A stretch of DNA of 24,000 nucleotides, taken from contig JAUWKS010000013.1 of the NCBI GenBank assembly GCA_030614005.1, positions 38,337 to 62,336 of the forward strand, in the 5' to 3' direction. This document shows positions 2,971 through 24,000 of the stretch, one piece after another. Under the pieces are notes generated by a model. It was not told the DNA's origin. It saw nothing but the letters and a program-made list of their open reading frames with translations, and did not search any database. Origin of the DNA: Candidatus Heimdallarchaeota archaeon (GTDB lineage Archaea > Asgardarchaeota > Heimdallarchaeia > JABLTI01). Positions within the stretch are counted from its first letter, which is position 1; every line of letters starts with the position of its first letter. A program made the position numbers and the translations under genes.

Positions 2971-5091
2971 TTGAGCGACTATATACATACTATCAGCTTC
3001 AAAGTTCTCATAGATTCTGAAGTGGTGGATTTTACGTTTAGAGTTCCACGAGGAACGTTGCTAATCCAAGTATTGGATGAACTTGAAACAACGCTGAAAA
3101 TTCAGCCAAGGGTTATTGCTACAGTAAATCATGATGGAGAAATAGTTATTATCGAAAACCATTATTCCACCGTTGAGTACCTTATGCAAAAACATGGAAC
3201 TGATTTTTATGCTGGCGGATCAAGTATTGTGACATTCAATCATGGAGAATACATTATTGATCTAGAAGTTCCAGAAGCAATTCCATTTGCATCATCCTTT
3301 AGAACAGCCTGTAAAAGCTTCTCGATAATGCCAAGAGATGTCTCTATGGAAAGACAAGATGGTCAAGTGATGGATTATGAAATATTTCGTATGCCCACCG
3401 CTTTTGTGCTAAACTCTTGGGGGAATTTTTATCGAATTGTTGATCGCGAATTAGGTGATCCTTTAATTGATCCACCAAAAGCAGTTGAAGAAGAGTCGCT
3501 CACACATACAGAGCAAACTTCTGAAGAAATAAAATCGGAACAAGATTCAATGGTCTACCCACCGAAATTAGATGGTTCTGAATTAATAGATGCAGCTTCA
3601 GTAGTATCTGAAATAGATACTTTGACTGATCATTTTGTTGAATCCTCCTTATCTGATGACCAAGAAAAACCAACAATTGAATCATTAATGGATGAAATAC
3701 GTATAGATAGTGAAACCGATTTAGACGATGACGAAGAGGAGTTTATGACTCAAGCAATTGACGAACCCTTAGCAGATTCTGTTATTACAGATGTTTCACA
3801 CATAGAGGAGAAGGAGGAGGAACCTGAAGGCGTTCCCCTAAGTGAAGTGATTGATTTTGACGATGAAATAGAAGCTTTAGAGGATGAAACAATTGCTGAT
3901 GAAGAGGAAGAAGATGATTTAGAAATTTTTGCCCAAGATTATGAAGAAGTAACGGATTTTGAAGAAGTTGATACTGAAGAACAAATTTCCGATGAATTTG
4001 TTGATGAGGATGAAGAGGTCATTGACGATCTTCCAATTGAAGAAACTTCTCCATCATTTGAAGAAATGATAACAACTTCTGTAATAGAAGAGAAAGTAGA
4101 ATCAGATGAAGTTGAAGAACCTGAGGAAGAAAAAATAGTTACTCAACCATTTGATGATGAGCAATTTATTGATTCAATCAATGATCATTATGTTGAAAAA
4201 GATACGAGTGATCAAATACCAGTATTCTCTACTGATGAAACAGAAATAACCGAAGATGTTGAGGATGAAGACTTAGACGAAGACCCTCAAGCATTGGATG
4301 ATTTGACGGAAGATATGGTTATCAAATCCGAAGATATTTTCGAATCTGATCTCAAAGAGATAGATGAAGTAACTGAACAACCAGTAGTTGCTCCTATTCA
4401 GGATGATTTGTCTTTAGACCAAAGATTAGAGATTAGAAAACAAGAGCTAGTTACTCTTGAAAAAATCTTAAGTGAAGAAGAGAAATTAAAAGTAAAGATA
4501 CAACAAAGGACAATTACCATCGATTATTATGAGAAAATGAATCCACGAAAAATATATCCAATAGCGGTGAAAATTTCACCTACTACTTCACCTAAACAAA
4601 ATAAATTCACTGACCAACTAAAGATTGTACCGATATTTCCAGGTTGTTATGTAACTCCCCATCAAGAAATTATTGAAATAAATGGTGAAAGTGATATTGA
4701 TACAGAATTCACTGTAACACCTCTAATTAGCAAAGGAATAGTAAATGGAAAACTTGGTATCTGGTATAAAGAAAGAAATATTCTCAATATCAATACTAGA
4801 TCAAAAATAAGGAATTATTCGGGTTGCATTGTTAGTAGCATATTGGCATTTCTATTTGGAATTATGCCTTTTATGTTTTTAATATTCAATTTTAATTTTA
4901 ATGAAGCTTTAGCAACTGGAATAAATAACATTCTTTCAACATCATTGACAACTACTTTGTTAATGATTATTGAAATAATTCTGTTAGTAGTTTTCCTTGG
5001 CCTAATGGTAGGGTTTATTTTCGTAGGGAAACCAGCAAAACGAAAAATAAAACGCAAATTTTATCCTGTTGCACCTCAATCTGATGATTAA
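2971..5091 (+). CDS. Hypothetical membrane-anchored protein: N-terminal globular region, ~300-aa D/E-rich disordered spacer, coiled coil, beta-rich domain, 2 C-terminal TM helices
   Basis: 706-aa ORF with a TTG start preceded by GAGGT (acagaggtagaaaa-TTG). Residues ~170-480 (nt 3478-4410) are dominated by D/E with interspersed I/V/F/L. TM helices are ILAFLFGIMPFMFLIFNF and LLMIIEIILLVVFLGLMVGFIFVG, followed by a basic tail KPAKRKIKRK. I recognise no family. Confidence 0.8.
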   Translation: MSDYIHTISFKVLIDSEVVDFTFRVPRGTLLIQVLDELETTLKIQPRVIATVNHDGEIVIIENHYSTVEYLMQKHGTDFYAGGSSIVTFNHGEYIIDLEVPEAIPFASSFRTACKSFSIMPRDVSMERQDGQVMDYEIFRMPTAFVLNSWGNFYRIVDRELGDPLIDPPKAVEEESLTHTEQTSEEIKSEQDSMVYPPKLDGSELIDAASVVSEIDTLTDHFVESSLSDDQEKPTIESLMDEIRIDSETDLDDDEEEFMTQAIDEPLADSVITDVSHIEEKEEEPEGVPLSEVIDFDDEIEALEDETIADEEEEDDLEIFAQDYEEVTDFEEVDTEEQISDEFVDEDEEVIDDLPIEETSPSFEEMITTSVIEEKVESDEVEEPEEEKIVTQPFDDEQFIDSINDHYVEKDTSDQIPVFSTDETEITEDVEDEDLDEDPQALDDLTEDMVIKSEDIFESDLKEIDEVTEQPVVAPIQDDLSLDQRLEIRKQELVTLEKILSEEEKLKVKIQQRTITIDYYEKMNPRKIYPIAVKISPTTSPKQNKFTDQLKIVPIFPGCYVTPHQEIIEINGESDIDTEFTVTPLISKGIVNGKLGIWYKERNILNINTRSKIRNYSGCIVSSILAFLFGIMPFMFLIFNFNFNEALATGINNILSTSLTTTLLMIIEIILLVVFLGLMVGFIFVGKPAKRKIKRKFYPVAPQSDD

Positions 5092-5460: not shown

Positions 5461-6240
5461 TCAATGGTATTTTGCATTTGAGCATTTGTTCCTAGATTTA
5501 ATCTTGATGGAATCAAAGAGCATTGAACCGATATCAATGAATAATAATCTATTAGTTAACAATGGTTTTTCTTTTAACATAACTCTAGTAGCTTCGGCAA
5601 TCTGTAAACTACCAATTAACTGTATTATACTCGGATGAATGCCAGTTTCTGCTGAAGATGGAAGTGCATTATCATCAATATGACCAAATAAACACTCGAT
5701 ACAAGCGCCTCCTCGAACAACTGTCATTACATTCCCTGCTAAACCGCTAACCGCACCAAATAGGAAAGGTATATCGCTTTCTAAGCATTTCTTGTTAATT
5801 GCGAATCTTGATGTGAACCTATCTAAAGCATCAATAACAAAATCAACATTATCAGTTACAAGATCAACATTTCTAGTAGAAACCTCTTCTTGAATGATTT
5901 CAATTTTAACATCTGGGTTTAGCTTTTCTAAGAATTTTTTAGCCGCATTTACCTTTGGTTTGCCTACATCCTTTTCACGGTATAGCATTTGTCTTTGTAA
6001 ATTTGATAACTCAACAATATCTTTGTCAAAAAGTCGCAGGTGACCCACACCTAATGCTGTAAGTTGAGTTGCAGTAACAGAACCAAGACCTCCAGCTCCA
6101 ACAATTGAAACTCTTGCTCGTCGAATTTTTTTCATACCCTCAACACCAATTGTTGGGAGATTAACAAAACGAGAATATCTGCCTGTAGAAAAATTGTTTT
6201 CGTTCAAATCTTTATTTCTCCATAAGTAGTTCTTTTGCAA
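5461..6240 (-). CDS. ThiF/MoeB/UbaA-type E1-like adenylyltransferase (ubiquitin-like/sulfur-carrier activating enzyme)
   Basis: RYSRF...IGVEGMKKIRRARVSIVGAGGLGS (Rossmann GxGxxG), LSNLQRQ motif, and a CIEC CxxC pair. There is no rhodanese domain. The start overlaps the upstream HD gene by 29 nt. Confidence 0.85.
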   Translation of the reverse strand: MQKNYLWRNKDLNENNFSTGRYSRFVNLPTIGVEGMKKIRRARVSIVGAGGLGSVTATQLTALGVGHLRLFDKDIVELSNLQRQMLYREKDVGKPKVNAAKKFLEKLNPDVKIEIIQEEVSTRNVDLVTDNVDFVIDALDRFTSRFAINKKCLESDIPFLFGAVSGLAGNVMTVVRGGACIECLFGHIDDNALPSSAETGIHPSIIQLIGSLQIAEATRVMLKEKPLLTNRLLFIDIGSMLFDSIKIKSRNKCSNAKYH

Positions 6241-6802
6241 GTTTCTTAACTAAGCTAAATTCATAATTGTCAACTTCTTTATTGAAACTAATGAAAAAAT
6301 CACTAAACATCTCTTTAGAGAGGCCATTTCGAATATAATTGTTCAGCTGAAGAATTGTTTCAAGACGATCTGCTTCAGATACAATCCTTGCTTCTATTGA
6401 TTTCTTTTCCTGAAATTCAGCGAAATATTCTTGCAAAATTTTCCCTTGTTCTTTAGGGAGCTTTGCAAATAATGATTTTGCCGCATTTTTATCAAGGTCA
6501 TGTTTGAATGCATCATATTTTTCCGGAGAGAATTTTCTTATGCAACGATTAATATCTTGAGATACACTTTCTGAGAGATCATGAATATGGGCCATAATTA
6601 GTGCTTTCTCTAGATTGATTTCCTTTCCTTTAGCTTTTTCATCAAAACAGATTAGCATAGTTATCATAGTAACAAATTGACTGTGGTCTGCAACACTCTC
6701 TACATCTGAAAGCGGAACACCGGAGTAAATCCAACCACTTCTAACAATTCGTTTAAGGCGGATGGCTTCTTGTAAAAATGACAATAGATTAATTTCATGC
6801 AT
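6212..6802 (-). CDS. HD-domain phosphohydrolase, YfbR-like 5'-deoxynucleotidase family
   Basis: RSGW...ESVADHS...HIHDLSE...D pattern, matching the RxGW / E-x-VAEHS / HD-x-xE motifs of the HD_3/YfbR family. 196 aa. Confidence 0.8.
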   Translation of the reverse strand: MHEINLLSFLQEAIRLKRIVRSGWIYSGVPLSDVESVADHSQFVTMITMLICFDEKAKGKEINLEKALIMAHIHDLSESVSQDINRCIRKFSPEKYDAFKHDLDKNAAKSLFAKLPKEQGKILQEYFAEFQEKKSIEARIVSEADRLETILQLNNYIRNGLSKEMFSDFFISFNKEVDNYEFSLVKKLAKELLMEK

Positions 6803-6894: not shown

Positions 6895-7661
6895 TATGTA
6901 TAAAAGTTGCTCTTTTTCCTTGCTTGTCGGGGTGTTCCAGCAGACATTTCATTTGTCTGAAGTGCTAATTCTGAAAGTTTCTTTTTAATGGATTCAGATT
7001 GCTCAATCAAGGTTTCAACATTGATATCTAATTCTTTCAAGTCATTGATAATTTTAACAAGAGAGGCAGCCCCACCAGGATCAGGGAGTTCAGGTCTTGT
7101 GCCTACAAGAAACGCATAACCATCTATATCACTTATCATGGTTTTATTTAGAATTGCACCAGCAAACCCTTTGATAAAGCCACTTTTCAGAGGAGGAATT
7201 TTCAGCTTCTCTGCTTTATTTTTAATTTCGGGTTCGGAAACCATATACACTTTCCCTTCATCCTTTCTATTGAGATAACCAAATCCATCAAGGGTTATAA
7301 TTTCCTTTGCTCCATGCCCTTCTGCCCACGACATAATAGCATTGGAAATAAAGTATGCTGCTTCTGGAGAAACAGCACTTTCACCAATAAATACTGCAAT
7401 TTTCAAATCCTTCTTCCCCATAATCCGATAGGGATGTCTCAGATACCCATCTAGGAAAACAGCAACAGGTGGTATTGCAACGCCTTCAATAAAACCAATG
7501 GTTTTTAGTTCCAATTTTTCACTTATATGTTGGGCAGCAATCGCTCCAGTTAATCCCATACCTGGAAAACCAACAATAACTGTTTCTACATCAAAATCAG
7601 TTTTACAGATGCATCGAGCATACATCTCACTACTTTCAATTAAACTTCTATCATAGTTCAA
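6894..7661 (-). CDS. PAC2-family proteasome assembly chaperone (PbaA/PbaB-like) with C-terminal HbYX motif
   Basis: VIVGFPGMGLTGAIAAQHI...PPVAVFLDG...IAVFIGESAV is typical of the PAC2 family. The C-terminus ends ...KKSNFYT, i.e. F-Y-T, which is hydrophobic-Tyr-X. TTG start with AGGAG 10 nt upstream; M13 is an alternative start. Confidence 0.8.
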   Translation of the reverse strand: MNYDRSLIESSEMYARCICKTDFDVETVIVGFPGMGLTGAIAAQHISEKLELKTIGFIEGVAIPPVAVFLDGYLRHPYRIMGKKDLKIAVFIGESAVSPEAAYFISNAIMSWAEGHGAKEIITLDGFGYLNRKDEGKVYMVSEPEIKNKAEKLKIPPLKSGFIKGFAGAILNKTMISDIDGYAFLVGTRPELPDPGGAASLVKIINDLKELDINVETLIEQSESIKKKLSELALQTNEMSAGTPRQARKKSNFYT

Positions 7662-7831
7662 AATACATTTCTCCTACTTTTTTTTTGAAATTAAATGTTT
7701 AATATTTCGTAAATATATACTATCTTCTACCATTATTTAGACTTGTTGTTTTTTTTCTTTGTAAAAAACTCATCAAATATTAATAAAATGTTAAAATTCA
7801 GCTAAAATCTTAATATTAAAACAAATGAAAG

Positions 7832-7851
7832 GTCGGAGAATTGGCTCCGAC
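7832..7851 (-). terminator. Stem-loop 17 nt downstream of the methyltransferase stop
   Basis: GTCGGAG-aattgg-CTCCGAC, a perfect GC-rich 7-bp stem. On the minus strand it is followed by ctttcatttgtttt. Confidence 0.45.
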
Positions 7852-7868
7852 AAATTGCTGTTTGAAAA

Positions 7869-8756
7869 TTATTTTTTCTTCTTAACGATTTCGACCATTT
7901 TCTTTATATGTTCTGTAGTGGTTCCACAGCATCCTCCAAGAACTTCAACACCAAGTTTTTGGATTTCTAGCATATCATTAGCAAACCTAGCAGGATCGAT
8001 TGGGTAGAGATTTTTACCTGCGACAGTCAATGGTGCACCAGCAGTAGGTTGTACGATAACTGGTTTCGTTGCAACATTTTTGATCTCCTTAGCTAGTCCT
8101 ATCATTTCATAGCTACCAAGTGTACAACCGCAACCAACAACATCTGCTCCGGCTTTTTCCAAACGAGTAATGGACTCTTTCACATCCATATTACACAAAG
8201 GTGTTCGATATCCTTCAGCAAATTTGTCAAAAGTCATTGCTACGATAATAGGTAAATCACTTGTTTCTTTTACACTCTTAATGGCTTCTTCCGCTTCTTC
8301 GATGTAATACATTGTTTCAATACTAAACAAATCTACATCTGCTTTCGTTAGGGCTTCGATTTGCTCATCAAAAGCTTCACGGAACATTGCTAACGTATAG
8401 TCTCCACCATCACGTTCTAAAAGCACTGCATTAGGACCAACATTTCCAGCAACAAAACCATTTTTTGGGCAAACACTTCTAGCAATCTCTACCTGACGGG
8501 TATTGATTTGTTGAATCTTTCCTTCGAGTTTTTTACCTAGGCCAATAATAGTTGCACCATATGTATTTGTGTGGATAGCATCAACACCGGCATCAAAATG
8601 TGCTTTATGTATCTCTGCAATAATCTCTGAAAAGTAAGCTGAAAATCTTTCTGCAGAATCGCCTAGTACTAATCCTTTCTCAAGGAGCTCTGTTCCCATT
8701 GCTCCGTCAAAGAAAACGGTTCGTTCTTCTATTAGATCAAGTATTGTTTTCTTCAT
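7869..8756 (-). CDS. Homocysteine S-methyltransferase domain protein (MetH N-domain / MmuM-like, Zn-dependent)
   Basis: FFDGAMGTEL, TNTYGA and the C-terminal Zn-ligand motif GGCCGTTTEHI. I prefer the ATG at 8756 (GGTGA 6 nt upstream) over the track TTG at 8792, which lies only ~20 nt from the TTTTAAAA TATA-like element at 8809-8816. Confidence 0.85.
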   Translation of the reverse strand: MKKTILDLIEERTVFFDGAMGTELLEKGLVLGDSAERFSAYFSEIIAEIHKAHFDAGVDAIHTNTYGATIIGLGKKLEGKIQQINTRQVEIARSVCPKNGFVAGNVGPNAVLLERDGGDYTLAMFREAFDEQIEALTKADVDLFSIETMYYIEEAEEAIKSVKETSDLPIIVAMTFDKFAEGYRTPLCNMDVKESITRLEKAGADVVGCGCTLGSYEMIGLAKEIKNVATKPVIVQPTAGAPLTVAGKNLYPIDPARFANDMLEIQKLGVEVLGGCCGTTTEHIKKMVEIVKKKK

Positions 8757-12790: not shown

Positions 12791-14773
12791 GTGACCACGC
12801 CAGCTAAGGGAGATAAGATAAAAACAAAAACCCCCTACAAGACGCAACCCGATCTTGATAAAATCATTTCAGGTGGTAATTGGTACAAAAAACTCATTGA
12901 AACAATGGATGATGGAATTATTGCTACAGATATGAATAGAATTATTATTTATGTTAACCCTGCTGCTTGTAAAAAATTAGGTTATACTGAAGAAGAATTA
13001 CTTGGAAAAAGCTCTTTAGAAATTGTTGTTGAAGAAGATCGCGCTAGAGTCACTCGAGAATCAGCAATACGCTTTAGTGAAAAAGTCTCTACACAATATG
13101 AAATTACTTTTAAAACAAAAGTTGGCTCAAAATTTCCCGTTCTGATTAGTGGTTCACCAATTTTGGATGAGAATAATCAAACACTTGGCACTTATGCATT
13201 AATTACTGATATCAGAGATAGAAAGGTTGTAGAAAAAGAGTTACGGGATAAGAATAATGAATTACAAAATCTCTATAACAATTTATTGGAGTTATATCAG
13301 CAACTGGGTGCAATAATCGCAGAGACAACTACAGTACCCTCAACTGAAATTTTGCTTTTCACCTCCAAGCATTGTGTGTATTGTGCACCTGCAGAAGAGG
13401 TCCTACAACAGGTACTTGCTTCTTACGCTGGAAAAATCACTTACAGAAAAGTGGATATTGATGAAGAGCCTGAGTTGGCAGCAGAACATGAGATTCTTTC
13501 CCTCCCAACAATTGCAATTGGCGAAGAACAACTAACTTCTGTTCCTGATATCTATAAATTACATTCAGCATTATTCAGTGCATTAGTGCCCGAAGAAAAG
13601 TTCAGAAGAACAAGACAAGAATTAGATAATATTATTGATAATTCACCTGTTGCTATTTTTACTATAAATTCTAAAGGAACGGTTACCAAAAGTAATCCTC
13701 TTGTCGGGATACTGACCGGTGTGGAATTACAAGACATTACAGGTCATGATGCACTAAATCCAGAAAAGAATGGAGAATCACTATTTCCAAAATCACTCAT
13801 TAAGCTTTTTAAGAAAGGCCTAAAAGGTAAGACAATAACTGAAGATCGTTTACGTATCAAAGACTATTCCTCTGAGAAAGATGATCCATTTTCAATTGTT
13901 AGTTTCAAAGTAGTTCCAATGGCTACTAAAGAGGGAGAAATAAACGAAATTCTTGTCTTATGTGAAGATGTCACTAAACTGGCTATGCAAGAAGAAGCAT
14001 TGAGTGAATCCTATACCAAATTAGAAGACCTGAATGACAAGCTTTTACAATTAAATAAAGATAGGTCGAATTTTGTTGAACTTACTTCGACTAAACTTTT
14101 AGAACCATTAAGAAACTCAAGAGAGTTGATAGATACTATTCTTCGTGGGCAATTAGGCATGCTGAGTGAAGAACTATTTGGCACAATGGAATTTCTGAGA
14201 AATAACTTAGAAAAAGTATCAAAAAGTATTTTTGGCATTATAGAATTTTCAAATATAGAAGCACAAGACTTCAGTTTGAAACTTGATGAACATAACCTTA
14301 AGGATCTTATTTCACAAACAACTAGTTTAGTTGGGTCTGTAGGTATACAAAAAAGCTTTATTGGGACAATTGAACTTTCTAATGAAGTCACTGTTTGGTG
14401 TGACTCTGAACAAATTATTCGTGTTTTAAGAAACTTAGTTTTGAATGCTATCCAATTCACTCCTATAAATTGTAACATTCACTTTTCAGCTGAAGATAAG
14501 AATGGTCTTGTTGCTGTTTATTTGAAGGATAACGGTTTTGGTATTGCTAAGAAAGATCTTAAAAGAATATTTGAGCAATATGTAAAAACTGATCCCGAAA
14601 GTTCTGGGTCGGGTTTAGGGTTATCCATGGTAAAAAGTTTAGTGGAAGCTCACGGAGGAACCGTTAGAGCAGAATCGGAAGGCAAAAACAAAGGTTCAAC
14701 GTTTATGTTTACTTTGCCAACCAATAAAGCATCATATGAAAAACTAATCTCTAAGAAAGAGAAATCAAATTAG
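12791..14773 (+). CDS. PAS - thioredoxin-fold (CxxC) - PAS - degenerate HisKA - HATPase_c sensor protein (histidine-kinase-like, H-box His absent)
   Basis: PAS1 runs from YKKLIETMDDGIIATD to ALITDIRDRK. A Trx fold follows: ILLFTSKHCVYCAP...ILSLPTIAIG. PAS2 runs from IIDNSPVAIFTIN to VLCEDVTK. The DHp-like helix SNFVELTSTKLLEPL sits where SHELRTPL is expected. HATPase boxes are intact: N (VLRNLVLNAIQFT), G1 (DNGFGI), F (IFEQY), G2 (GSGLGLSMV). GTG start with GGAG upstream. Confidence 0.85.
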   Translation: MTTPAKGDKIKTKTPYKTQPDLDKIISGGNWYKKLIETMDDGIIATDMNRIIIYVNPAACKKLGYTEEELLGKSSLEIVVEEDRARVTRESAIRFSEKVSTQYEITFKTKVGSKFPVLISGSPILDENNQTLGTYALITDIRDRKVVEKELRDKNNELQNLYNNLLELYQQLGAIIAETTTVPSTEILLFTSKHCVYCAPAEEVLQQVLASYAGKITYRKVDIDEEPELAAEHEILSLPTIAIGEEQLTSVPDIYKLHSALFSALVPEEKFRRTRQELDNIIDNSPVAIFTINSKGTVTKSNPLVGILTGVELQDITGHDALNPEKNGESLFPKSLIKLFKKGLKGKTITEDRLRIKDYSSEKDDPFSIVSFKVVPMATKEGEINEILVLCEDVTKLAMQEEALSESYTKLEDLNDKLLQLNKDRSNFVELTSTKLLEPLRNSRELIDTILRGQLGMLSEELFGTMEFLRNNLEKVSKSIFGIIEFSNIEAQDFSLKLDEHNLKDLISQTTSLVGSVGIQKSFIGTIELSNEVTVWCDSEQIIRVLRNLVLNAIQFTPINCNIHFSAEDKNGLVAVYLKDNGFGIAKKDLKRIFEQYVKTDPESSGSGLGLSMVKSLVEAHGGTVRAESEGKNKGSTFMFTLPTNKASYEKLISKKEKSN

Positions 14774-16054: not shown

Positions 16055-16738
16055 CTATCTCATCCATTGTGCTACTTTGACTCCTTTCCAACGTTTTATC
16101 TCGCCGTTTTTCATACCGATGAAATCAGGAATCATTCTGAGGATAATGAGTATTGTGCACCCCCAACTAAAAACCATTATTGGCCACGTATGCCAATGAG
16201 TTCCATCAAGCAAGGAAAATTGTCCTACTAGATAGAAAATAGTGTATGTTGTCGCAACGGATACTGTTGCCATTATACCTGCTATTCCACTATATCTGAT
16301 AATTATTAACCAAACAAGTAATGAAACCCACCAAACAAGGATACCCCATGGATTGATTACAATCATGACACCAGTTAATACTGCAAATCCTTTGCCTCCT
16401 TGAAATTTCATCCAAGGCATCCAACAATGTCCCGCAAATGCTGCAATACCACACAGAGCAGCTAGTAAATCCAAATTCACTGGTTCTAAAGATGTTAGAG
16501 TACTGAAAAAGATATATCGAGTTAATAATGTGCCAAGAAAGCCTTTTGTAATATCTAAAGACATAGTTAAAATCGCCCAACTATAACCCGCTGTTCGTAC
16601 AGTGTTTCTAGTGCTAACGGAACCTGAACCTTCATTTCGCACATCTTTTCCAGTAACTAATTTAACAATAATCCAAGCAAATGGAATCGAACCGAAAAAG
16701 AACCCAATAATTGGTGCTAAAATATAAGGATAAATCAT
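16055..16738 (-). CDS. plsY: PlsY-family glycerol-3-phosphate acyltransferase (acyl-phosphate dependent), bacterial-type
   Basis: GFFFGSIPFAWIIVKL...GKDVRNEGSGSVSTRNTVR, DITKG and GHCWMPWMKFQGGKGFA align with the three PlsY motifs (GSGNxGATNxxR, DxxKG, GHxxPxxxxFxGGKG). I prefer the ATG at 16738 (AGGAG 9 nt upstream) over the TTG at 16744. Confidence 0.8.
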   Translation of the reverse strand: MIYPYILAPIIGFFFGSIPFAWIIVKLVTGKDVRNEGSGSVSTRNTVRTAGYSWAILTMSLDITKGFLGTLLTRYIFFSTLTSLEPVNLDLLAALCGIAAFAGHCWMPWMKFQGGKGFAVLTGVMIVINPWGILVWWVSLLVWLIIIRYSGIAGIMATVSVATTYTIFYLVGQFSLLDGTHWHTWPIMVFSWGCTILIILRMIPDFIGMKNGEIKRWKGVKVAQWMR

Positions 16739-16916
16739 CTGCAAAATCTCCTGTTATTAGCACTACTATTCTTTATCTTTAAATAGATTTTTCACAGACG
16801 CTATGATATGGTTATTACGGCTAATTCTTTAACAAAATTAATTCTTTGGCAAAAACTAAAAAAGCAGAAGAGCTTAAAGAGGATAACAAACCAAATCAAA
16901 AGAGAGACTGATTATC

Positions 16917-17183
16917 TTGGTATCTTGGAAAGAAGAATTTAAACAAGCAGGTATAGAGTTGGGGTATGATTTACTATTAGTTGCACTAATCATTTGTTGG
17001 GTAGCGGCTATTGTTACTGCTATACTAGAAGTTTCTCTTTGGATTGCCTTAGGACTTTTCTTTTTGGGATGTATTTTCTTATTTTCAATGTTTACAGTAT
17101 CGAGAAATTCAGAAGAAGCTGAGAAAAAAGCTCTAGCAAAAGAAAATTCTGAAGATGTAGAAGAGGAAGAAGAAAAAGCATAA
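16917..17183 (+). CDS. Small hypothetical membrane protein (2 TM helices + acidic tail)
   Basis: 88-aa ORF with only a TTG start available. It has two clean TM helices and the tail EDVEEEEEKA. T-tracts lie downstream (atatttttgg, ccttttttttc). The non-ATG start and lack of a clear SD lower confidence. Confidence 0.4.
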   Translation: MVSWKEEFKQAGIELGYDLLLVALIICWVAAIVTAILEVSLWIALGLFFLGCIFLFSMFTVSRNSEEAEKKALAKENSEDVEEEEEKA

Positions 17184-17416
17184 GAAAGTATATTTTTGGA
17201 ATAATTTTATTCGTAAGAGAAACTAACAGCCTTTTTTTTCTTTGTTATACCCATAACACAATACTTTTTTGCATACAATTCAAAAATATGCTATCTGATA
17301 ATTTGTTGCTAATAGTTAAATTGCTCGTAATTTTGTAAATTAGGTTCATTTACACAAATGAATAAGCAGAATAATCAAATTATTAACTATTGAAATCCTG
17401 TTTGGAGAGAAAAAAC

Positions 17417-19066
17417 ATGCCAGAAGTAGGTCTAGGAGAATTCGATGATCAAGAAGTATTAAAGAAATCGCTTGTGGCATTCGAAAAAACCAAAAAAGAG
17501 ATTCAAGATCATATTCTTGAAAGAACCGCAGTTGTTCCTGATGTAACTTTAACTGAAATAGAAAAAGAATTCAATATTTCCACAGAACTCGCGAAAGCAA
17601 TTTTTGTGTTAGAATTTGAGTATTATATTCCGAGGAAACTTTCAGCAAATTGTTACCTCTCTGAAATGAAGAGACTTACAGAAGCTCAATATGAATTGCC
17701 GGATATTTACTCTTTTAGAGTAAGGTATTCAATGGAAGAAGGTTTTTGGATTAAATATCTAGTAGTGGATCTTCCAAAAAAACTTGAACATAAAATGGGT
17801 AAACTGAAAAAAATCTATTGTTCTCTATTTGGCGACCTCGCCGCGGATAAAGAAGACGCAGCCGTATATATTATCGAAAGAGCTTTTATCTGTAGTGAGG
17901 TAATAAGACCAATTATCCATTCTTGGATGAAAGAGCATCATCGAGCAAAGTATTCTGATTGTGTGAAAACATTTTTGTGTAGCATCCAACGAAAAGCAAG
18001 AGAAAAGTGTTTACCATTAGTGGAAGAAATTGGCAATAGATTTCATTCACAGATGGATTCACTAAGAAGTATCATTACCGAAATTCGACCAAAAGGGTGG
18101 ATAATGAATGCAAAAGAAGAATATAATAAACTTTCAGAGAAACTAATACTATTTGAAAAGGAAGACTACCTTGATTGGCGATTAGCTGCAGAAATTATTT
18201 TAGAAACAATGTTGTTGAGAGATTTTGATGATCAAGATAAAGAAGAAACAGATTTTGTAGTTAAAGAAATGCCAAAACAAAAAGAAAATATTGTAACTCA
18301 AATGATAACAACAAAAAAGGAAAAATACCTCACAGATGATATTTCAGTAATTCTTACAAAAATAGTTGATTTATCTGAAGAGAACCAGAAACCGCTAATA
18401 GAAGAGATGATACAAGAAAATTATGATCATGCAACAGTCAAAAACCGAGTAAAACCAGCTATTTTCTCAAAGATTTTTCTTGAAAGGATTATGACTGAAC
18501 TGATGATTGGAAATAAAGAAATAGTCAAAATAACAAAGAAATTTGATGTACAACTTATGTTTCGCTTATCTCCTGCTGGAGGAAAAGAATTTCCACATTT
18601 AGGAATAGATGACAAAATAACTGGATTGCTTGAAGAATTTGTTATGGATATTCTACAAAAACAAAATGAGCTAAAAATGATTTCTACAGAAGAAACTATG
18701 AGGGAGAAAGCTGAGCAATCTATTGAAGAGAGCGAAAAACACTCAGAAGAAGTAGACTCGACAAAGAAAAGTCAAGTGGTTGGGAAAATAAAGGAATCGA
18801 GTGAAAAGGAATTATGGTTATTTGTAAGAGATGAATACTTGAAAGAATTATTCGATAGTGAGAAAGAATTAGTTGCAGGAGCAAGAATTCTGAAGAAATA
18901 TTCACTTGAACTGGGATTATTAATGACTGAGGGAGAAGCAACGTCATATCTAACCTCTGAACTCGATAAGAAGGGCTTTTCTATTGAAAGCTCAAGCAGA
19001 GAAGATATTGATTCAAATGTGTGCAAAATCGTTTTCAAACAGTTGAAAGAATTGAGGAAATACTAA
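17417..19066 (+). CDS. Hypothetical protein, 549 aa, K/E-rich and predicted mostly alpha-helical; no family recognised
   Basis: Long ORF with protein-like composition. ATG at 17417 is preceded by GGAGAG 9 nt upstream; the track TTG at 17390 is less likely. Possible winged-helix-like segments occur near both termini (VTLTEIEKEFNISTELAKAIFVL; ARILKKYSLELGLLMTEGEATSYL), but I cannot support a call. Confidence 0.75.
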   Translation: MPEVGLGEFDDQEVLKKSLVAFEKTKKEIQDHILERTAVVPDVTLTEIEKEFNISTELAKAIFVLEFEYYIPRKLSANCYLSEMKRLTEAQYELPDIYSFRVRYSMEEGFWIKYLVVDLPKKLEHKMGKLKKIYCSLFGDLAADKEDAAVYIIERAFICSEVIRPIIHSWMKEHHRAKYSDCVKTFLCSIQRKAREKCLPLVEEIGNRFHSQMDSLRSIITEIRPKGWIMNAKEEYNKLSEKLILFEKEDYLDWRLAAEIILETMLLRDFDDQDKEETDFVVKEMPKQKENIVTQMITTKKEKYLTDDISVILTKIVDLSEENQKPLIEEMIQENYDHATVKNRVKPAIFSKIFLERIMTELMIGNKEIVKITKKFDVQLMFRLSPAGGKEFPHLGIDDKITGLLEEFVMDILQKQNELKMISTEETMREKAEQSIEESEKHSEEVDSTKKSQVVGKIKESSEKELWLFVRDEYLKELFDSEKELVAGARILKKYSLELGLLMTEGEATSYLTSELDKKGFSIESSSREDIDSNVCKIVFKQLKELRKY

Positions 19067-19085
19067 AAAAAATCATTATCCTCTT

Positions 19086-19223
19086 TTATCTGTCCTCAAA
19101 AATTGAGAAGGATCTACTCGTCGTTTTTTGATTAGCATTATCAGAAGAATTGTTACCAATAACATCTTTCTTACGGTAACTGCGGCTCAGATTTTCCGCC
19201 CAAAAATCTAGTTCAACTGGCAT
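19086..19223 (-). CDS. Possible unannotated small ORF (45 aa)
   Basis: Read by hand as MPVELDFWAENLSRSYRKKDVIGNNSSDNANQKTTSRSFSIFEDR*. The ATG is preceded by GAAGGT ~11 nt upstream, the same SD flavour as other genes here. It is below the track length cutoff and has no homology evidence. Confidence 0.25.
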   Translation of the reverse strand: MPVELDFWAENLSRSYRKKDVIGNNSSDNANQKTTSRSFSIFEDR

Positions 19224-19672
19224 GCTATTTCTTTACCTTCTCAAGATTGGTTTGTAGTGACAATGATATTTCAATAATTCAATAAAAACAACCGCAATAT
19301 CGGGATAGTTACCTCAATATTAGCTTCTAATAGAATTTAGAGATGAAAAAGAGAAGAAAAAAAGGTTTTTGTAGCGACAAAAACACCGATGCTTTTTCCC
19401 ACAAAACATAAAAAGAATCAATAAAAAGTACAATTAGAAAGTTACTAGACTTCAAATCCAGAAAAACTAGCTGAAGTTACCAGTACAAAGAAAAGTTCCT
19501 AAAATCAATGTTATCTTAGATGGGAACATCAAGAAAAAGCGGGGATATGTTTAACTATTCAAAAAGTGGTTAGATAAAAAACATCACCAAATAAACAAGT
19601 ACTTGGTACAGATAGATTTTGAAGGAAATGAAATACAGACCAAACAATTGGTAATAGGTTGATGAAAGAACA

Positions 19673-20911
19673 ATGTCAATGAAAGCAGATTTCATAAAAG
19701 AATTAGAAATTTCTACATTCTCAAAACCAATTCTAAAAGAAATGGGCGTAAAAGCAATCTTCTTAGTCACTTTTGACATTATCCTAGGACCAATAGCCTA
19801 TGTCAATAAACTCTCTACAGAAAAAAGTGAGTATCTCGAATTTTTGCAACAGAATATAGCGCACCTAGGAGAATTTTACACTGGAATATCACATGCACAA
19901 ATCGATAAAGTAACAACAAGAACCGGAGAAGAAATGCTTGTAGGACGAGCAACAAGAAAAGTAAATGAAATGGAACTAATAGATATCGCCGTAGCTTTAG
20001 TGGACTCAACAGAATATCATAATGAAATTGTTAAGATGCTAAAATTCGTTGTGAGAACGTCATATGGCAATCCAAAAAACTTTTGTGATTTATTAGACAG
20101 AGTGTTGCTGGAATATCAAGACCTCGGAAAGAAAAAAGCAGAGGCAGGAAAATTCGCCGTATTCAAAGATGCTTCAAAGGAAAAAGTGGCGAATATAGCA
20201 AAGCTATATCACAATTGGAAAGGAGTACTATTCATAGATTTTGAAGGAGATAACATAAACAGCTCATTTATGCCGGATTGGATTGAAGCGAGTAAAATAA
20301 ATTCGCAGGAATTAGCTCAGAAAACGAGAAATATGTACGCAGAAGGAGTTATCATTCCAAGATCTAAACAAATATTTTCGATGGTAAGCATAAAAGGCAA
20401 ACAAGTAATCGTTGTATCAACAAATAATTCACGCTATGTAACAATCATTTTCCCGACAGCAGATGGAATGACAAAAATATCAACAATAGCAGAAAATATG
20501 GATATTATTAACGAGGCACTGAGCGAAGTGGGAATGCAATTCAGCACAGATGCAATGAAGAATACTCTCGAGATAATCGATAAAAGAATAAGAGAAAATG
20601 ATACCAGCGTCTTAATGAAAGAAGTAATTGTAGTAATGTTAAGATCCGAAGAGTTGATGCCAAAGAAAAAGATAAAACAAGAAGAATTTGAAGCATTTCA
20701 GGGAGAAATACAAAAGAAATATTTTCAAGGATTGAATAAAGCATTCGAAGAATTTGATGGCACAAAAACAATCTTAGAAATAACTCATAGAGTAAATGTT
20801 AGTTTAGAGCAAATGGGTGATTTTGTGGTGTTTTGTATGACAAGGGGAATTGTGCAGGTCTTTACTAAAAATGGCCGAACAAGAAAAACAGATGGAAAAG
20901 TTGTTATCTAA
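19673..20911 (+). CDS. Hypothetical protein with two roadblock/LC7 (longin-like) type domains and a C-terminal winged-helix domain
   Basis: 412 aa. Domain 1 (aa ~5-150): helix, then GVKAIFLVTFDIILGPIAYV hairpin, helix, three strands, helices. Domain 2 (aa ~170-285): KVANIAKLYHNWKGVLFIDFEGDNINSSF...IFSMVSIKGKQVIVVSTNNSRYVTIIFPTADGMTKISTIAENMDIINEAL, the classic roadblock pattern. C-terminus: GTKTILEITHRVNVSLEQMGDFVVFCMTRGIVQVF (wHTH-like). The CDS is solid; the domain calls rest on pattern only. Confidence 0.6.
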   Translation: MSMKADFIKELEISTFSKPILKEMGVKAIFLVTFDIILGPIAYVNKLSTEKSEYLEFLQQNIAHLGEFYTGISHAQIDKVTTRTGEEMLVGRATRKVNEMELIDIAVALVDSTEYHNEIVKMLKFVVRTSYGNPKNFCDLLDRVLLEYQDLGKKKAEAGKFAVFKDASKEKVANIAKLYHNWKGVLFIDFEGDNINSSFMPDWIEASKINSQELAQKTRNMYAEGVIIPRSKQIFSMVSIKGKQVIVVSTNNSRYVTIIFPTADGMTKISTIAENMDIINEALSEVGMQFSTDAMKNTLEIIDKRIRENDTSVLMKEVIVVMLRSEELMPKKKIKQEEFEAFQGEIQKKYFQGLNKAFEEFDGTKTILEITHRVNVSLEQMGDFVVFCMTRGIVQVFTKNGRTRKTDGKVVI

Positions 20912-21209
20912 GTAGGGAAAAGAGCCCGAAAAAAGTATCGTTACCATTCTATTCACTCATATTTAAATAAAAACGATTTTTTATTACTAAATATAATTTT
21001 AGAAATAATCGCAAGTTATTAAAAACCGTTAACTCAAATATTAAGTGGAAATGGAGTACCACTATTTGTTATTAGGAGAAAAATGCAGTTGCAATAGAGG
21101 CTTCTTTTTCTAGAAACGAAGAGTAATTGAGGAGCTTTGTAAAAAAATACTAGCTGAAAAAACTCAAGAAAAGGGAAAGTAAAATAACCGATTTAAAGAA
21201 GGGGAAAAT

Positions 21210-22028
21210 ATGTATCAAGATGATTTGGGAAATTTCCATAGAACAGATGCAGAAGAAAATGTTTTGTGGGGGATGAGACTATTAAAAATAGGATTCATTC
21301 TCTTAATAATATGTTTTACAGCATATTTCATAGAATCAATAATAGAATTGTATACAGGACTAGGTCATTATACAATAGATCCGACATACTCCTTTAACAA
21401 AATAAAAGCATATTATATAATGATAATGTTTTTGGCAATATTCACAACTACTTTTACAGGATCAATTTATGTGCTTGGAATGGGAACTGTATTTTTGAGT
21501 AGGATCTTACCAGAACCTGTGAAAAAGAGCCTGAAGATAACGGGGATACTATATCTAATACTAATACCTCTGAACTTGCTAAAAATAATAATTATATATA
21601 GTATTTATGCAAATTCCTCATTAGTTACAGATATCTCAAGAATAAGTAGAATAATAACCAATATAGTTTATTCAGTAAAAGTACTAGAATTTCTAATGCT
21701 GATAGTAATAGCTATGCTACTAGCAAAAGAACTGAAACAAATGAATGAAATGCAAAGAGGAAAAAATGGTACGGTAGTTTTACCGGGAATTTTAGTAGCA
21801 GCATTCATTATCTGGTTAACAGGAGGAATAATGTTTTACGTTGTAGTAGATAAACCAGATCCATACGATGTGCTAGAACCAGTGCTAAATACTGCAATAT
21901 ATCTAGAAGGAATAGGTCAAATACTCTATTGTGCAATAGCAGTTGGAGTATTCATAGCACTACTAGTAAAAGCAAACAAAATAGTGATACCTCCTTTAGC
22001 AGTAATAAACAGAAGTGGTTATTACTAA
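21210..22028 (+). CDS. Hypothetical polytopic membrane protein (~6-7 TM helices)
   Basis: 272-aa ORF with the ATG preceded by GAAGGGG. It has repeated 20-25 residue hydrophobic segments separated by short polar loops. No family recognised. Confidence 0.75.
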   Translation: MYQDDLGNFHRTDAEENVLWGMRLLKIGFILLIICFTAYFIESIIELYTGLGHYTIDPTYSFNKIKAYYIMIMFLAIFTTTFTGSIYVLGMGTVFLSRILPEPVKKSLKITGILYLILIPLNLLKIIIIYSIYANSSLVTDISRISRIITNIVYSVKVLEFLMLIVIAMLLAKELKQMNEMQRGKNGTVVLPGILVAAFIIWLTGGIMFYVVVDKPDPYDVLEPVLNTAIYLEGIGQILYCAIAVGVFIALLVKANKIVIPPLAVINRSGYY

Positions 22029-22114
22029 CTACATACCTATCTAAAATAAAGAAAAAAAAAGACAAGTAAGCAAGTGTGTGTGAGAAATTGACAGCGCAAT
22101 ATGTAGTTAAGAAA

Positions 22115-22375
22115 ATGGCAAAGATACATTGTGCGAAGGGACCAAAGAACTGCAAGAAATGTAGAGAATATGCAAAAGAGAAAAGATATGCATTATTGGA
22201 CACCAACCCACAAGAAAATGAAATGGCAGCAAGACCGATGATAGAGTTGGAAGTTGAGGGCGGGGAAAAAGTCTGGGTAACTTTTGATGTGATAGCTTAT
22301 TTTGAGTCAATGGATGAAGTAAAAGAATATACAACAAAAAAAGACATTGAAGTAGAACAAATAATTGAAGAATAG
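22115..22375 (+). CDS. Small hypothetical protein (86 aa from the ATG; 99 aa from the GTG at 22076) with an N-terminal HC-x6-C-x2-C cluster and acidic C-terminus
   Basis: MAKIHCAKGPKNCKKCREYAKEKRYALLD...IELEVEGGEKVWVTFDVIAYFESMDEVKEY. Its composition is protein-like, whereas the antisense ORF 22107-22427 is low-complexity L/F/S-rich. The start is ambiguous. Confidence 0.5.
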   Translation: MAKIHCAKGPKNCKKCREYAKEKRYALLDTNPQENEMAARPMIELEVEGGEKVWVTFDVIAYFESMDEVKEYTTKKDIEVEQIIEE

Positions 22376-22427
22376 AATTCAAAAAGTAAAGAATAAAGCT
22401 GAAGCCTAGATTGAATAAAATGATCAA

Positions 22428-23489
22428 TCAAAAATTCAAGCCAAAAAAAGATTGCTTTTCAATTTGTTGTTTAAGACTAGGTTTGATTTGTATACAAATA
22501 TCCGTTACTAAAGTCATTAAATCTTCTGGAGTTTGTTTGGTAAATTTCTGGAATTGTTCACTATCAAATTTGCCATTAGAACACATTCCTAACAATTCAA
22601 TACATTTAGTAATAATATTACTCATTTCCTTTTCAAATGATGCTCGAATGTCAATTTCAGTTTTTTGCTTTCGCATTTTTTTTACCAGAGCACGTAAAAT
22701 TTTTGTACCATTTAAACCGGAAGCTGTTCCTTTTTCCAAAGAAATAATTGCTACATCAGCATTTTTGTAATTTATTTCAGAAGCTTGAGGAACACCAATA
22801 ACATTAGCTGTTTGAGGGTCTACATATGAACTTGTATAAGTGATTACGTTTTGAAAGGGAAACGGAGTAAGTAGATTTAGGATAGCTATTGTTTGAGATG
22901 CAGATATTAGATCACTACAAATGATGATTGGTTTGAAAGACAATAAGGCATAAATTACTACATCTAAATTAGATTTAATATGGTCAAAAAGAAAAGTGAT
23001 AGAAACATCGGTAGGGGCATTCATTTTAGCGCGAAAATAAGCTAGATTTTCTTCGGAAAACCTACTCATCTCAGAGAAACGTTGATCATATATTGAAAAA
23101 ACGGCATCAATAATTCCATTTAATATCTGTTCTTGCTTATGTGAGAAGATGAGACCGGTATGAACTTCTTGAATTTCTTGAATCTCAGAAATAATTTTAG
23201 ATACTATTTCAGAGAGAATCTTATCTATTATTTCCTTTTCATAAGCTACATTAATATCCTTGATTATAACAACACCAAAATTCTTACTTATTTTAATATA
23301 GATTTCATGTGTTTGAGTAGCAAAATAGTTCGCTTCACCAACATCCATAGTAGCTAAAAAAGTCTGAATGGCTGTAATAGCTCCTGAGAAAAGAGTAGCT
23401 CGTTCAATAGATTCTTTTCCTTCTGACTTTAATTTTCGGAAATAAAGAGGAAGTCCACTTTGAGAGATAATATATATGGCATCTAACAT
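22428..23489 (-). CDS. Hypothetical protein with N-terminal longin-type domain and central DENN/folliculin-like core
   Basis: 353 aa. The N-terminus LDAIYIISQSGLPLYFRKL...ERATLFSGAITAIQTFLATM...HEIYIKISKNFGVVIIKD has longin beta-beta-alpha-beta-beta-beta order. Residues ~160-260, VVIYALLSFKPIIICSDLISASQTIAILNLLTPFPFQNVITYTSSYVDPQTANVIGVP...ADVAIISLEKG, match the remembered core-DENN consensus. The CDS is solid; the domain call rests on pattern only. Confidence 0.55.
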   Translation of the reverse strand: MLDAIYIISQSGLPLYFRKLKSEGKESIERATLFSGAITAIQTFLATMDVGEANYFATQTHEIYIKISKNFGVVIIKDINVAYEKEIIDKILSEIVSKIISEIQEIQEVHTGLIFSHKQEQILNGIIDAVFSIYDQRFSEMSRFSEENLAYFRAKMNAPTDVSITFLFDHIKSNLDVVIYALLSFKPIIICSDLISASQTIAILNLLTPFPFQNVITYTSSYVDPQTANVIGVPQASEINYKNADVAIISLEKGTASGLNGTKILRALVKKMRKQKTEIDIRASFEKEMSNIITKCIELLGMCSNGKFDSEQFQKFTKQTPEDLMTLVTDICIQIKPSLKQQIEKQSFFGLNF

Positions 23490-23514
23490 TCTAAAAAAAT
23501 AGACTACTATCCCA

Positions 23515-23521
23515 TTTTAAA
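23515..23521 (-). promoter_or_regulatory. TATA box of the longin-DENN-like gene (probably a leaderless or short-leader mRNA)
   Basis: Minus-strand TTTAAAA starts 32 nt upstream of the ATG at 23489. No SD-like sequence lies in between (tgggatagtagtctatttttttaga-ATG). Confidence 0.35.
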
Positions 23522-23617
23522 TGTTCTTTAATATACAAGAAGGGATAATGAACGTAATTTTTGTCAGCAAAAAATACCCTCGGAAATGGTGACTGAATTT
23601 GTATCTAGAAACGAAAA

Positions 23618-23630
23618 GGCTAGAGTAGCC
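23618..23630 (-). terminator. Weak stem-loop + T-tract downstream of the 23689-24000 gene
   Basis: Minus strand: GGCTA-ctc-TAGCC followed by TTTTCGTTTC. The stem is only 5 bp, ~60 nt after the stop. Confidence 0.25.
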
Positions 23631-23688
23631 GCTTAGTAAACTGTGTAAGCATAGTAGGTAGACTAACAAACTAACAGTGATTGGTAAA

Positions 23689-24000
23689 CTATTTAATTAT
23701 CATTTTATAGGTCCTCAAGCTTAATAAAACCATTATTAAAACGAAGACCGCACCAAACACATAAACAATGGGTGTGATAATTTGATTGATAATATCAATC
23801 TCTAATATGACACTAATTATTGCTGCGATATAACCAAGAATAAAGAAAATAATAAAAGAGATAGCTATTTTCCAGTATTTGGTTATACTTGCTCCCTCAG
23901 GGAACATTGCTATGATTTTAAGGATCAGAACAAAAGCAAAAACGAAACTTATTATTCCAATGCCGGCTGAAACAAGAGTGAAAATATCTAGTAAATCCAT
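23689..24000 (-). CDS. Small hypothetical membrane protein (3 TM helices), start at or beyond the window edge
   Basis: The 103-aa ORF begins with an ATG exactly at nt 24000, so the true start may lie outside the window. It has three long hydrophobic helices. Confidence 0.6.
   Translation of the reverse strand: MDLLDIFTLVSAGIGIISFVFAFVLILKIIAMFPEGASITKYWKIAISFIIFFILGYIAAIISVILEIDIINQIITPIVYVFGAVFVLIMVLLSLRTYKMIIK

Follow-up and report, generated by a model that had tools for sequence, protein, structure and literature searches.

Which system, if any, do the last genes of this stretch of DNA form? The stretch, in the following called the window, comprises 24,000 nucleotides (nt) from a Candidatus Heimdallarchaeota archaeon (GenBank assembly GCA_030614005.1, contig JAUWKS010000013.1, positions 38,337 to 62,336 of the forward strand). 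For its last 6.6 kb an earlier note, made from the sequence alone, had proposed one membrane-associated GTPase-regulatory module of six uncharacterised genes. In eukaryotes, longin, roadblock and DENN proteins are platforms that switch Rag, Arf and Rab GTPases at membranes, and the origin of this GTPase-switching machinery from Asgard archaea is a question in eukaryogenesis. With moderate confidence we favour another answer for this locus, namely two separate gene sets encoding longin-type GTPase regulators, which would act on GTPases encoded elsewhere. The genes at the window end are named G0 to G6 and the related loci compared with them L001 to L025. The features under discussion are listed with their coordinates in the window, their strand and their description (aa, amino acids; ORF, open reading frame).

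16917..17183, plus strand: G0, 88 aa, with a hydrophobic block of two spans (residues 11-63, hydropathy) and an acidic tail
17417..19066, plus strand: G1, 549 aa, soluble, of no recognisable family
19086..19223, minus strand: micro-ORF, 45 aa, MPVELDFWAENL...SIFEDR, convergent with G1
19294..19307, no strand assigned: inverted repeat, GCAATATCG(A/G)GATA, in the G1-G2 spacer
19396..19416, no strand assigned: TATA-like block, TTTCCCACAAAACATAAAAAG, in the G1-G2 spacer
19673..20911, plus strand: G2, 412 aa, NPRL2/Fuzzy-like according to its predicted structure
19748..20062, plus strand: longin domain 1 of G2, residues 26-130
20216..20530, plus strand: longin-type domain 2 of G2, residues 182-286
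20735..20866, plus strand: C-terminal winged helix of G2, residues 355-398, separated from domain 2 by helices
21210..22028, plus strand: G3, 272 aa, membrane protein with ~6 spans (hydropathy)
22076..22375, plus strand: G4, 99 aa here and ~86-99 aa in the family, with an invariant Cys/His motif
22428..23489, minus strand: G5, 353 aa, folliculin-like longin+DENN protein according to its predicted structure
22440..22997, minus strand: DENN domain of G5, residues ~165-350
23184..23489, minus strand: longin domain of G5, residues 1-102, followed by a helical linker
23689..24000, minus strand: G6, 103 aa, three-span membrane protein (hydropathy), encoded just 5' of G5

The earlier assignment of GTPase-platform folds to two of these genes was supported by structure prediction. 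For G2, the AlphaFold2 (AF2) model showed a pLDDT (predicted local distance difference test) of 81.5, and the three domains were assigned from its DSSP elements. In the Foldseek comparison with the PDB, the nominally best match was Fuzzy (9rs9_B, E=4.1e-5), together with NPRL2 (9o5a_H, 4e-5; four GATOR1 entries between 4e-5 and 2e-3, with probabilities of 0.93-1.0 over 383-393 columns) and yeast Npr2 (8adl_S, 7e-4). Altogether, the matches to NPRL2, Npr2 and Fuzzy comprise probabilities of 0.97-1.0 over ~385 columns at E-values of 4e-5 to 7e-4, with a TM score of only ~0.2. Further matches were chains of MON1A/CCZ1 complexes, including one of MON1A/CCZ1/C18orf8, so that the top-ranked matches consist of longin GTPase regulators only. 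The identity of the chains was checked: 6ces_N and 8adl_S are NPRL2/Npr2, and the entries 9o5a, 9o5d and 9v0j contain NPRL2. The earlier label "roadblock-wH" (wH, winged helix) for G2 is a fair one, while an NPRL2-like double longin with a winged helix is the more exact description.

The conservation of G2 points in the same direction. Its 25 detectable relatives, nearly all of them labelled as Asgard, show 44-91% identity, and the conservation of the N-terminal 150 residues is very strong. Among 26 G2 sequences, down to 48% identity, G39-P40, R92, R95 and K96 are invariant. In the model, G39-P40 is found at the start of strand 2, while R92, R95 and K96 are located on strand 4, just before a predicted turn at residues 98-99 which leads to strand 5. 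A GP motif before strand 2 has been described as specific to the longins of GTPase-activating proteins (GAPs), namely FLCN, NPRL2, SMCR8 and C9orf72 (PMC12290439, Traffic 2025). It is reportedly absent from FNIP2, NPRL3, TRAPP, adaptin and DENND longins, and some heimdallarchaeial longins possess it (PMC12290439). Based on the model and this motif, G2 is most likely an NPRL2/FLCN-type GAP longin protein.

Compared to NPRL2/Npr2, the catalytic subunit of GATOR1/SEACIT, G2 aligns over nearly its whole length, comprises the GP motif in its N-terminal longin domain (IFLVTFDIILGP in G2, IFFSEFHPTLGP in NPRL2), carries basic residues on strand 4 whose predicted position is next to the hairpin bearing the arginine finger Arg78 of NPRL2, and has a C-terminal winged helix. 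In contrast to NPRL2, the second domain of G2 shows a full longin-type fold, no match was obtained at the sequence level, and the TM score is low, as given above. Pfam NPR2 and NPR3 did not match G2, and the PDB-sequence profile search yielded no NPRL2. In the hhalign comparison of G2 with NPRL2, the best local stretch was strand 1 up to the GP motif (residues 25-40 against 6-21), which with an E-value of 0.16 is not significant. Unlike in GATOR1, no NPRL3- or DEPDC5-like gene is adjacent, the constant neighbour of G2 being the orphan G1. The tri-longin exchange factors for Rab GTPases (Fuzzy-Inturned, Mon1-Ccz1 and HPS1-HPS4) are multi-longin heterodimers acting on Rab GTPases, and chains of Fuzzy and MON1A/CCZ1 match G2. 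However, G2 comprises two longin-type domains and a winged helix instead of three longins, and it shows the GP motif that non-GAP longins reportedly lack (PMC12290439).

A separate observation for G2 concerns Get3. The G2 profile matches the helical/CXXC region of Aspergillus Get3 (3ibg_A, E=7e-5) with residues ~265-385, corresponding to positions ~20465-20827 of the window, and two other Get3 chains at 0.16. The cysteines are missing in G2, and the match is not taken as homology. Two ArsA/Get3-like ATPase genes were also observed near a G5-family gene in L025 (497-2529).

For G5, the AF2 model was built on 30 family members and reached a pLDDT of 87.4. The DSSP elements of the N-terminal domain (E2-9, E14-19, H28-47, E55-57, E61-67, E71-78 and H85-102) correspond to the order beta-beta-alpha-beta-beta-beta-alpha of a longin domain, for which many longin and roadblock matches were obtained by Foldseek. 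With the complete model, FLCN chains occupy ranks 1, 2 and 4 (6ulg_L with E=2.7e-7 and a probability of 1.0, 8dhb_J and 6nzd_H), and DENND10 (8p0v_M) occupies rank 3. The C-terminal (DENN) domain of FLCN (3v42_A) matches G5 with E=3.8e-4 and a TMt of 0.64 over 198 columns. The longin+DENN call of the earlier note consequently holds. At the sequence level, G5 itself gave no Pfam match, and the models Folliculin, Folliculin_C, SMCR8_C and DENN were not reached above threshold. Among its homologues, SMCR8_C (PF27109) showed weak or faint matches, and a few family members matched Folliculin_C, C9orf72-like, Folliculin and Fuz_longin_1 weakly. The family profile against the PDB sequences gave a weak SMCR8 DENN core motif and a match to a Loki longin.

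The family of G5 is large and heterogeneous. While a word-indexed search found three close relatives, an HMMER scan with their alignment found 88, which can be divided into full-length members with 340-370 aa, numerous standalone proteins of ~149 aa and longer multi-domain forms. Of G5, the standalone relatives cover residues 1-135 only. In G5 and the three relatives closest to it, the loop between strands 1 and 2 reads G-[LV]-P (G-L-P in G5) and not a strict GP, and the longin domains of these four sequences show no evident conserved arginine. The more distant, FLCN-like family members possess FDxxxGP. The similarity of these GP-type relatives to G5 is limited to its DENN half, while the longin half of G5 falls into the standalone family of 149 aa. 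Due to the altered loop and this grouping, G5 looks like a shuffled member of its family, and the missing strict GP motif makes a non-catalytic or guanine nucleotide exchange factor (GEF)-type platform more likely. As further observations on the family, the standalone longins P0032, P0038, P0040, P0041 and P0043 share the tail ...KKLKDALW and are close to the N-terminal domain of G5, and in the larger relatives P0060 (496 aa) and P0073 (763 aa, two DENN-like stretches) the domains are shuffled further.

The likeness of G5 to FLCN, and also to SMCR8/C9orf72 and DENND10, consists in the N-terminal longin and the C-terminal DENN alpha/beta domain. The differences are as follows: with 353 aa G5 is much shorter, reaches no Pfam model at threshold, has the loop G-L-P instead of G-P and shows no longin arginine conserved across its four closest sequences. 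Neither an FNIP-like partner nor Rag/Ragulator genes are found near G5, and in contrast to FLCN-type proteins its longin half belongs with the standalone archaeal proteins and not with the longins of the GP-type DENN relatives. MglB, a roadblock-type GAP for a Ras-like GTPase, also aligns with the longin domain of G5 (E ~3e-4, rmsd, root-mean-square deviation, ~3 Å). However, MglB consists of one small domain only, and its gene adjoins that of its GTPase MglA, whereas G5 and G2 are multi-domain proteins without an adjacent GTPase.

In Pfam and NCBIfam nothing above threshold was obtained for any of G0 to G6, and the best match below threshold among G1 to G6 was the one of Fuzzy longin to G5 (E=0.24). 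The last 6.6 kb of the window are thus correctly described as uncharacterised genes, and all six genes of the earlier note, G1 to G6, were reproduced at their positions by an ORF listing. G0 lies outside the part covered by that note, yet it is the first gene of a conserved block G0-G1-G2. The ATG at 17417 as start of G1 agrees with the homologues, and a TTG at 17390 is also possible. G6 is regarded as a complete gene, because gene calling gave the identical 103-aa gene on L001 and L008, two short contigs that match the window with full identity. According to hydropathy, G3 comprises ~6 transmembrane (TM) segments, G6 three and G0 two, while none were indicated for G1, G4 and G5. This supports the previous statement that two of the six genes, G3 and G6, encode membrane proteins. 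Homologues of the studied genes occur in Asgard archaea, mostly labelled Heimdallarchaeota or Gerdarchaeota, and a few relatives of G1 are labelled otherwise.

For the orphan G1, 36 homologues of ~550 aa were found, largely in the same narrow set of metagenome-assembled genomes (MAGs) and contigs as those of G2. Pfam scans of 25+10 of these homologues gave scattered and inconsistent matches to helix-turn-helix domains and domains of unknown function only. With the G1 profile, the sole match below E=0.01 among the PDB sequences was the unrelated small protein Gogy (7bqq_A, E=0.0035), and hhalign indicated no relation between G1 and G2, G1 and G5 or G2 and G5. A reading of the conserved D147...E154-R155 of G1 as PD-(D/E)xK-like was considered and rejected as unsupported. 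The small Cys protein announced for G4 was found again in the alignment, in which H18-C19-x6-C26-x2-C29 is invariant; the motif is probably a zinc knuckle. G4 had no Pfam match and nothing in the PDB profile search. Usually as the next gene, it was found 3' of G2 in seven lineages (L002/L003, L009, L011, L014, L015, L016 and L017).

Having considered the single proteins, we turn to the question of which genes belong together. For this, 19 related loci were collected and compared by tblastn and profile hidden Markov models. G0, G1 and G2 follow each other in this order in every locus with enough flank, which corresponds to 10 distinct relatives including 8/9 GTDB species with G2, and the arrangement is kept down to 49% identity of G2 and 33% identity of G1. 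G1 adjoins G2 in 16/16 loci with enough flank (10 distinct relatives after removal of duplicates), and adjacent locus tags of G1 and G2 were seen in further MAGs. By tblastn, G0 was found upstream of G1 at 38-86% identity in every related locus with enough flank. The block remains intact despite the loss of PlsY in L005, insertions upstream in L007 and wholly different genes downstream.

The second recurrent unit comprises G6 and G5. A G6-like three-span protein is encoded beside a G5-family gene in L002, L009, L010 (frameshifted and on the opposite strand), L020 (on the opposite strand) and L021 (on the same strand as the G5-family gene, with a gap of 19 nt). The G5 gene of L010 (42% identity) is flanked by a PadR-like and a TPR gene, and the G5-family member of L021 (21% identity) by the gene of a solute-binding protein and PGI. 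In all, four further lineages have a G6-like and a G5-family gene side by side amid otherwise different neighbours. Since these contexts share no other gene, the G6-G5 neighbourhood is better evidence for a functional link than the adjacency of G1 and G2. A metagenome scan for further relatives of G6 gave two weak and uninformative loci.

Based on these findings, two sets can be distinguished. Set A comprises G0, G1, the micro-ORF and G2, usually followed by G4. Most likely, the longin domains of G2 would mediate pairing, either between two G2 molecules or with a different longin protein, and G2 would stimulate GTP hydrolysis on a Rag-, Arf- or Rab-like GTPase encoded elsewhere in the genome. 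G1 could serve as a lineage-specific scaffold or partner in contact with G2, and G0 and G4 as small accessory proteins. Set B consists of G6 and G5, in which G5 might act as a non-catalytic or GEF-type platform and G6 might tether or recruit it at the membrane. If true, the pairing with G6 would explain in a simple way how a folliculin-like regulator reaches the membrane without Ragulator. If the pairings are physical, they would offer minimal two-component systems for biochemical reconstitution; if not, the genes would be one more example of expanded Asgard longin/DENN paralogues.

Several points weigh against this proposal. No sequence-level match lies above any curated threshold, and the functions are predicted from folds and motifs. 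The putative arginine finger equivalence of R92/R95/K96 in G2 is suggested by their position in a predicted hairpin; in simple sequence register, Arg78 of NPRL2 could fall on E99 of G2. The G2 family is a narrow clade, and since its members are also largely colinear in the genes for hydantoinase, PAS kinase and PlsY upstream, the adjacency of G1 and G2 may partly be inherited gene order. Between G1 and G2 there is a gap of ~560-850 nt with a micro-ORF on the opposite strand, and hence they do not form a simple operon. In L024 and L025 the G5-family genes have no G6-like neighbour. Finally, the GTPase partner of both regulators is a postulated one.

The absence of a small GTPase gene from the window, already recognised in the earlier note, was substantiated by tblastn with HRAS, ARF1 and RAB7, which gave no match in the window or in L001-L019. 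No Ras-, Arf- or Rab-like gene was found within ~10 kb of G1-G2 in any locus, and in the Pfam lists of the called genes Ras, Arf and Roc were missing around both G1-G2 and the G5 orthologues. The sole nearby GTPase is an Arf/Ras/Roc gene in L024 (1401-2135), 4 kb upstream of a distant G5 paralogue. In the same Heimdall genome, tandem repeats with ORF fragments repeated ~3x were observed between the G5-family gene and an RVT_1 gene (L024, ~7140-7900). Just beyond nt 24000, where the earlier note proposed to look for a small GTPase, two relatives have a 16S rRNA gene instead. This lone gene is found ~0.76 kb beyond G6 in L002 (14120-15610, plus strand) and L009 (1-479, minus strand, where the contig breaks off within the gene). 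The last 578 nt of the window have 100% identity to L008, which extends 514 nt further (L008 1-514) into the same spacer, with 88% identity to L009 and 80% to L002. To judge from these alignments, the end of the window most probably lies shortly before an rRNA gene, which would explain why several assemblies break at this point.

Among the alternatives, the one that survives best gives no functional meaning to the pairings: G0-G1-G2 would owe its constancy to a young colinear clade, G5 and G6 would be neighbours by coincidence, and the proteins would act alone as expanded paralogues. The colinear upstream genes at the same loci and the missing G6-like gene in L024 and L025 fit this explanation. 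It is also in line with the report of Liu et al. that most Asgard eukaryotic signature genes lie outside conserved neighbourhoods and that the families are patchy and shuffled (bioRxiv 2020.10.19.343400). On the other hand, G0-G1-G2 stays intact where both flanks have changed (loss of PlsY in L005, insertions in L007 and different downstream genes everywhere), the MAGs and contigs that yielded G1 and those that yielded G2 form a narrow and largely shared set, and G6-G5 recurs without any other shared gene, in L021 on one strand and only 19 nt apart. Overall, we consider chance neighbourhood unlikely.

A second alternative arises from the spacer between G1 and G2. The lengths of 606, 298 and 199 nt given earlier for the spacers of the last 6.6 kb are exact. 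Their designation as unusually long does not fully hold, since spacers of 207-369 nt are also found in the part of the window with recognisable genes. With a GC content of 0.29-0.33, compared to ~34% (0.338) for the window and 0.23-0.33 for the other spacers, they are not richer in AT as had been claimed. The spacer of 606 nt is not empty, as it comprises the conserved 45-aa ORF on the minus strand and conserved non-coding blocks. Counterparts of the micro-ORF with 45-50 aa were called at the same place in L002, L004, L007 and L009, and the translations share an N-terminal MP[VI]ELDxW..NL and a C-terminal SIF[ED], while the frame is interrupted early in L005. The inverted repeat ATATC-N2-GATA[T] is (near-)invariant in 10 lineages, although the flanking DNA cannot be aligned, is located ~370 nt upstream of G2 and may be bound by a dimeric regulator. 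The TATA-like block TTTCCCACAAAACATAAAAAG is likewise kept in 10 lineages within unalignable surroundings, and may belong to a promoter. Near these two conserved blocks, the motif 'CGACAAAA' was seen to recur. A known RNA in the long spacers was considered and dropped, because an Rfam scan of 16700-24000 found no RNA family even at E<=1.

Accordingly, G2, possibly together with G1, could be read as a ligand-sensing transcription regulator whose winged helix binds its own upstream repeat, with the likeness to NPRL2 and Fuzzy existing at the level of the fold only. Besides the repeat in 10 lineages and the C-terminal winged helix of the model, this would fit lower-ranked Foldseek matches of G2 to LasR, RhlR, SdiA, PpsR and Cache/PAS sensors (probability 0.1-0.7) and the conserved upstream neighbour, a PAS histidine kinase, which was found upstream of G0-G1-G2 in all related loci. 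In the window this kinase is encoded at 12791-14773 on the plus strand and contains an embedded thioredoxin-like segment (CVYCAP). However, the top matches of G2, at probabilities of 0.97-1.0, are all longin GTPase regulators, and the invariant GP motif is a feature typical of GAP longins. Moreover, NPRL2 itself possesses C-terminal winged-helix-like domains, as seen in the GATOR1 structures, and is not known to bind DNA. For these reasons a transcription regulator appears somewhat less probable still than neighbours without functional meaning.

A more specific form of the GTPase explanation would regard G6-G5 and G0-G1-G2 as membrane-tethered archaeal forerunners of FLCN-FNIP and GATOR1, the GAP complexes of lysosomal nutrient sensing in eukaryotes. 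In this case, G6 would replace Ragulator and Rag as membrane anchor of the folliculin-like G5, the NPRL2-like catalytic longin G2 and its partner G1 would act on a Rag- or Arf-like GTPase, and expression might be set via the inverted repeat and the neighbouring PAS histidine kinase. The forerunner idea is speculative, and we rate it as low as the transcription regulator.

The proposal of one module has to be seen in the light of the distribution of its genes. G5 and G6 lie beside G1-G2 only in the closest relatives (L002 and L009, G5 at least 68% identical), and a check of the G2/G5 pair in relatives found their order conserved in this range of identity only. Where G2 is 49-68% identical, other genes are found downstream. 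Besides the window/L001, G3 was found in L009 and L011 only; L002/L003 and every locus of greater distance lack it. In L009 an extra 238-aa gene is inserted, and in L003 G5 is truncated: its orthologue (5876-6508, minus strand) was called with 210 aa and without the longin, while tblastn similarity reaches ~35 residues upstream. Altogether, the stretch from G2 to the 16S rRNA gene looks indel-prone, and the confinement of G5/G6 to the nearest relatives, the coming and going of G3 and the truncated G5 indicate that the six-gene set is a recent juxtaposition and not one conserved module. A single membrane-associated module, with a G2-G5 longin heterodimer held by G3 and G6, is accordingly the least probable of the explanations, even though the GP motif in G2 and its absence from G5 reproduce the asymmetry of FLCN/FNIP and NPRL2/NPRL3 and the window, L002 and L009 have the genes side by side, since G5 at 42% (L010) and 21% (L021) identity lies elsewhere. 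As an additional observation, the G5 gene of L003 is followed by genes absent from the other loci.

For the preferred explanation of two separate longin-type gene sets, the comparison with published Asgard proteins remains. Already described from Asgard archaea are DENN proteins and expanded families of DENN paralogues, including Heimdall proteins with the domain organisation of FLCN, as well as NPRL2-like longins tied to two-component signalling and a conserved operon of a LAMTOR1-like protein, a Rab-like GTPase and a DENN protein (Liu et al., bioRxiv 2020.10.19.343400). G5 and G2 correspond to these DENN and NPRL2-like signature proteins (Liu et al.; Traffic 2025) in lineage and in kind, and FLCN-like and NPRL2-like proteins of Heimdall-group archaea are thus already published. 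In contrast to the operon of Liu et al., neither a GTPase nor a roadblock gene was recognised here; the neighbour of G5 is the three-span G6, and those of G2 are the orphan G1, the two-span G0 and G4 with its putative Cys knuckle. The present analysis makes a modest addition, namely a well-conserved NPRL2-like family (G2, 49-91% identity across the clade) with the constant orphan neighbour G1 and a conserved upstream palindrome, and a recurrent small membrane partner, G6, for the folliculin-like G5.

Two minor observations concern other genes. In the Gerd-like relative represented by L005/L006 (13143-19618), genes for a MoxR-type AAA ATPase, a VWA protein and a WD40 protein of 1003 aa are found ~2 kb 3' of G2. 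In the window itself, positions 2971-5091 on the plus strand encode a protein of 706 aa, which shows a central region of ~300 residues with an extremely high content of Asp and Glu and C-terminal hydrophobic segments.

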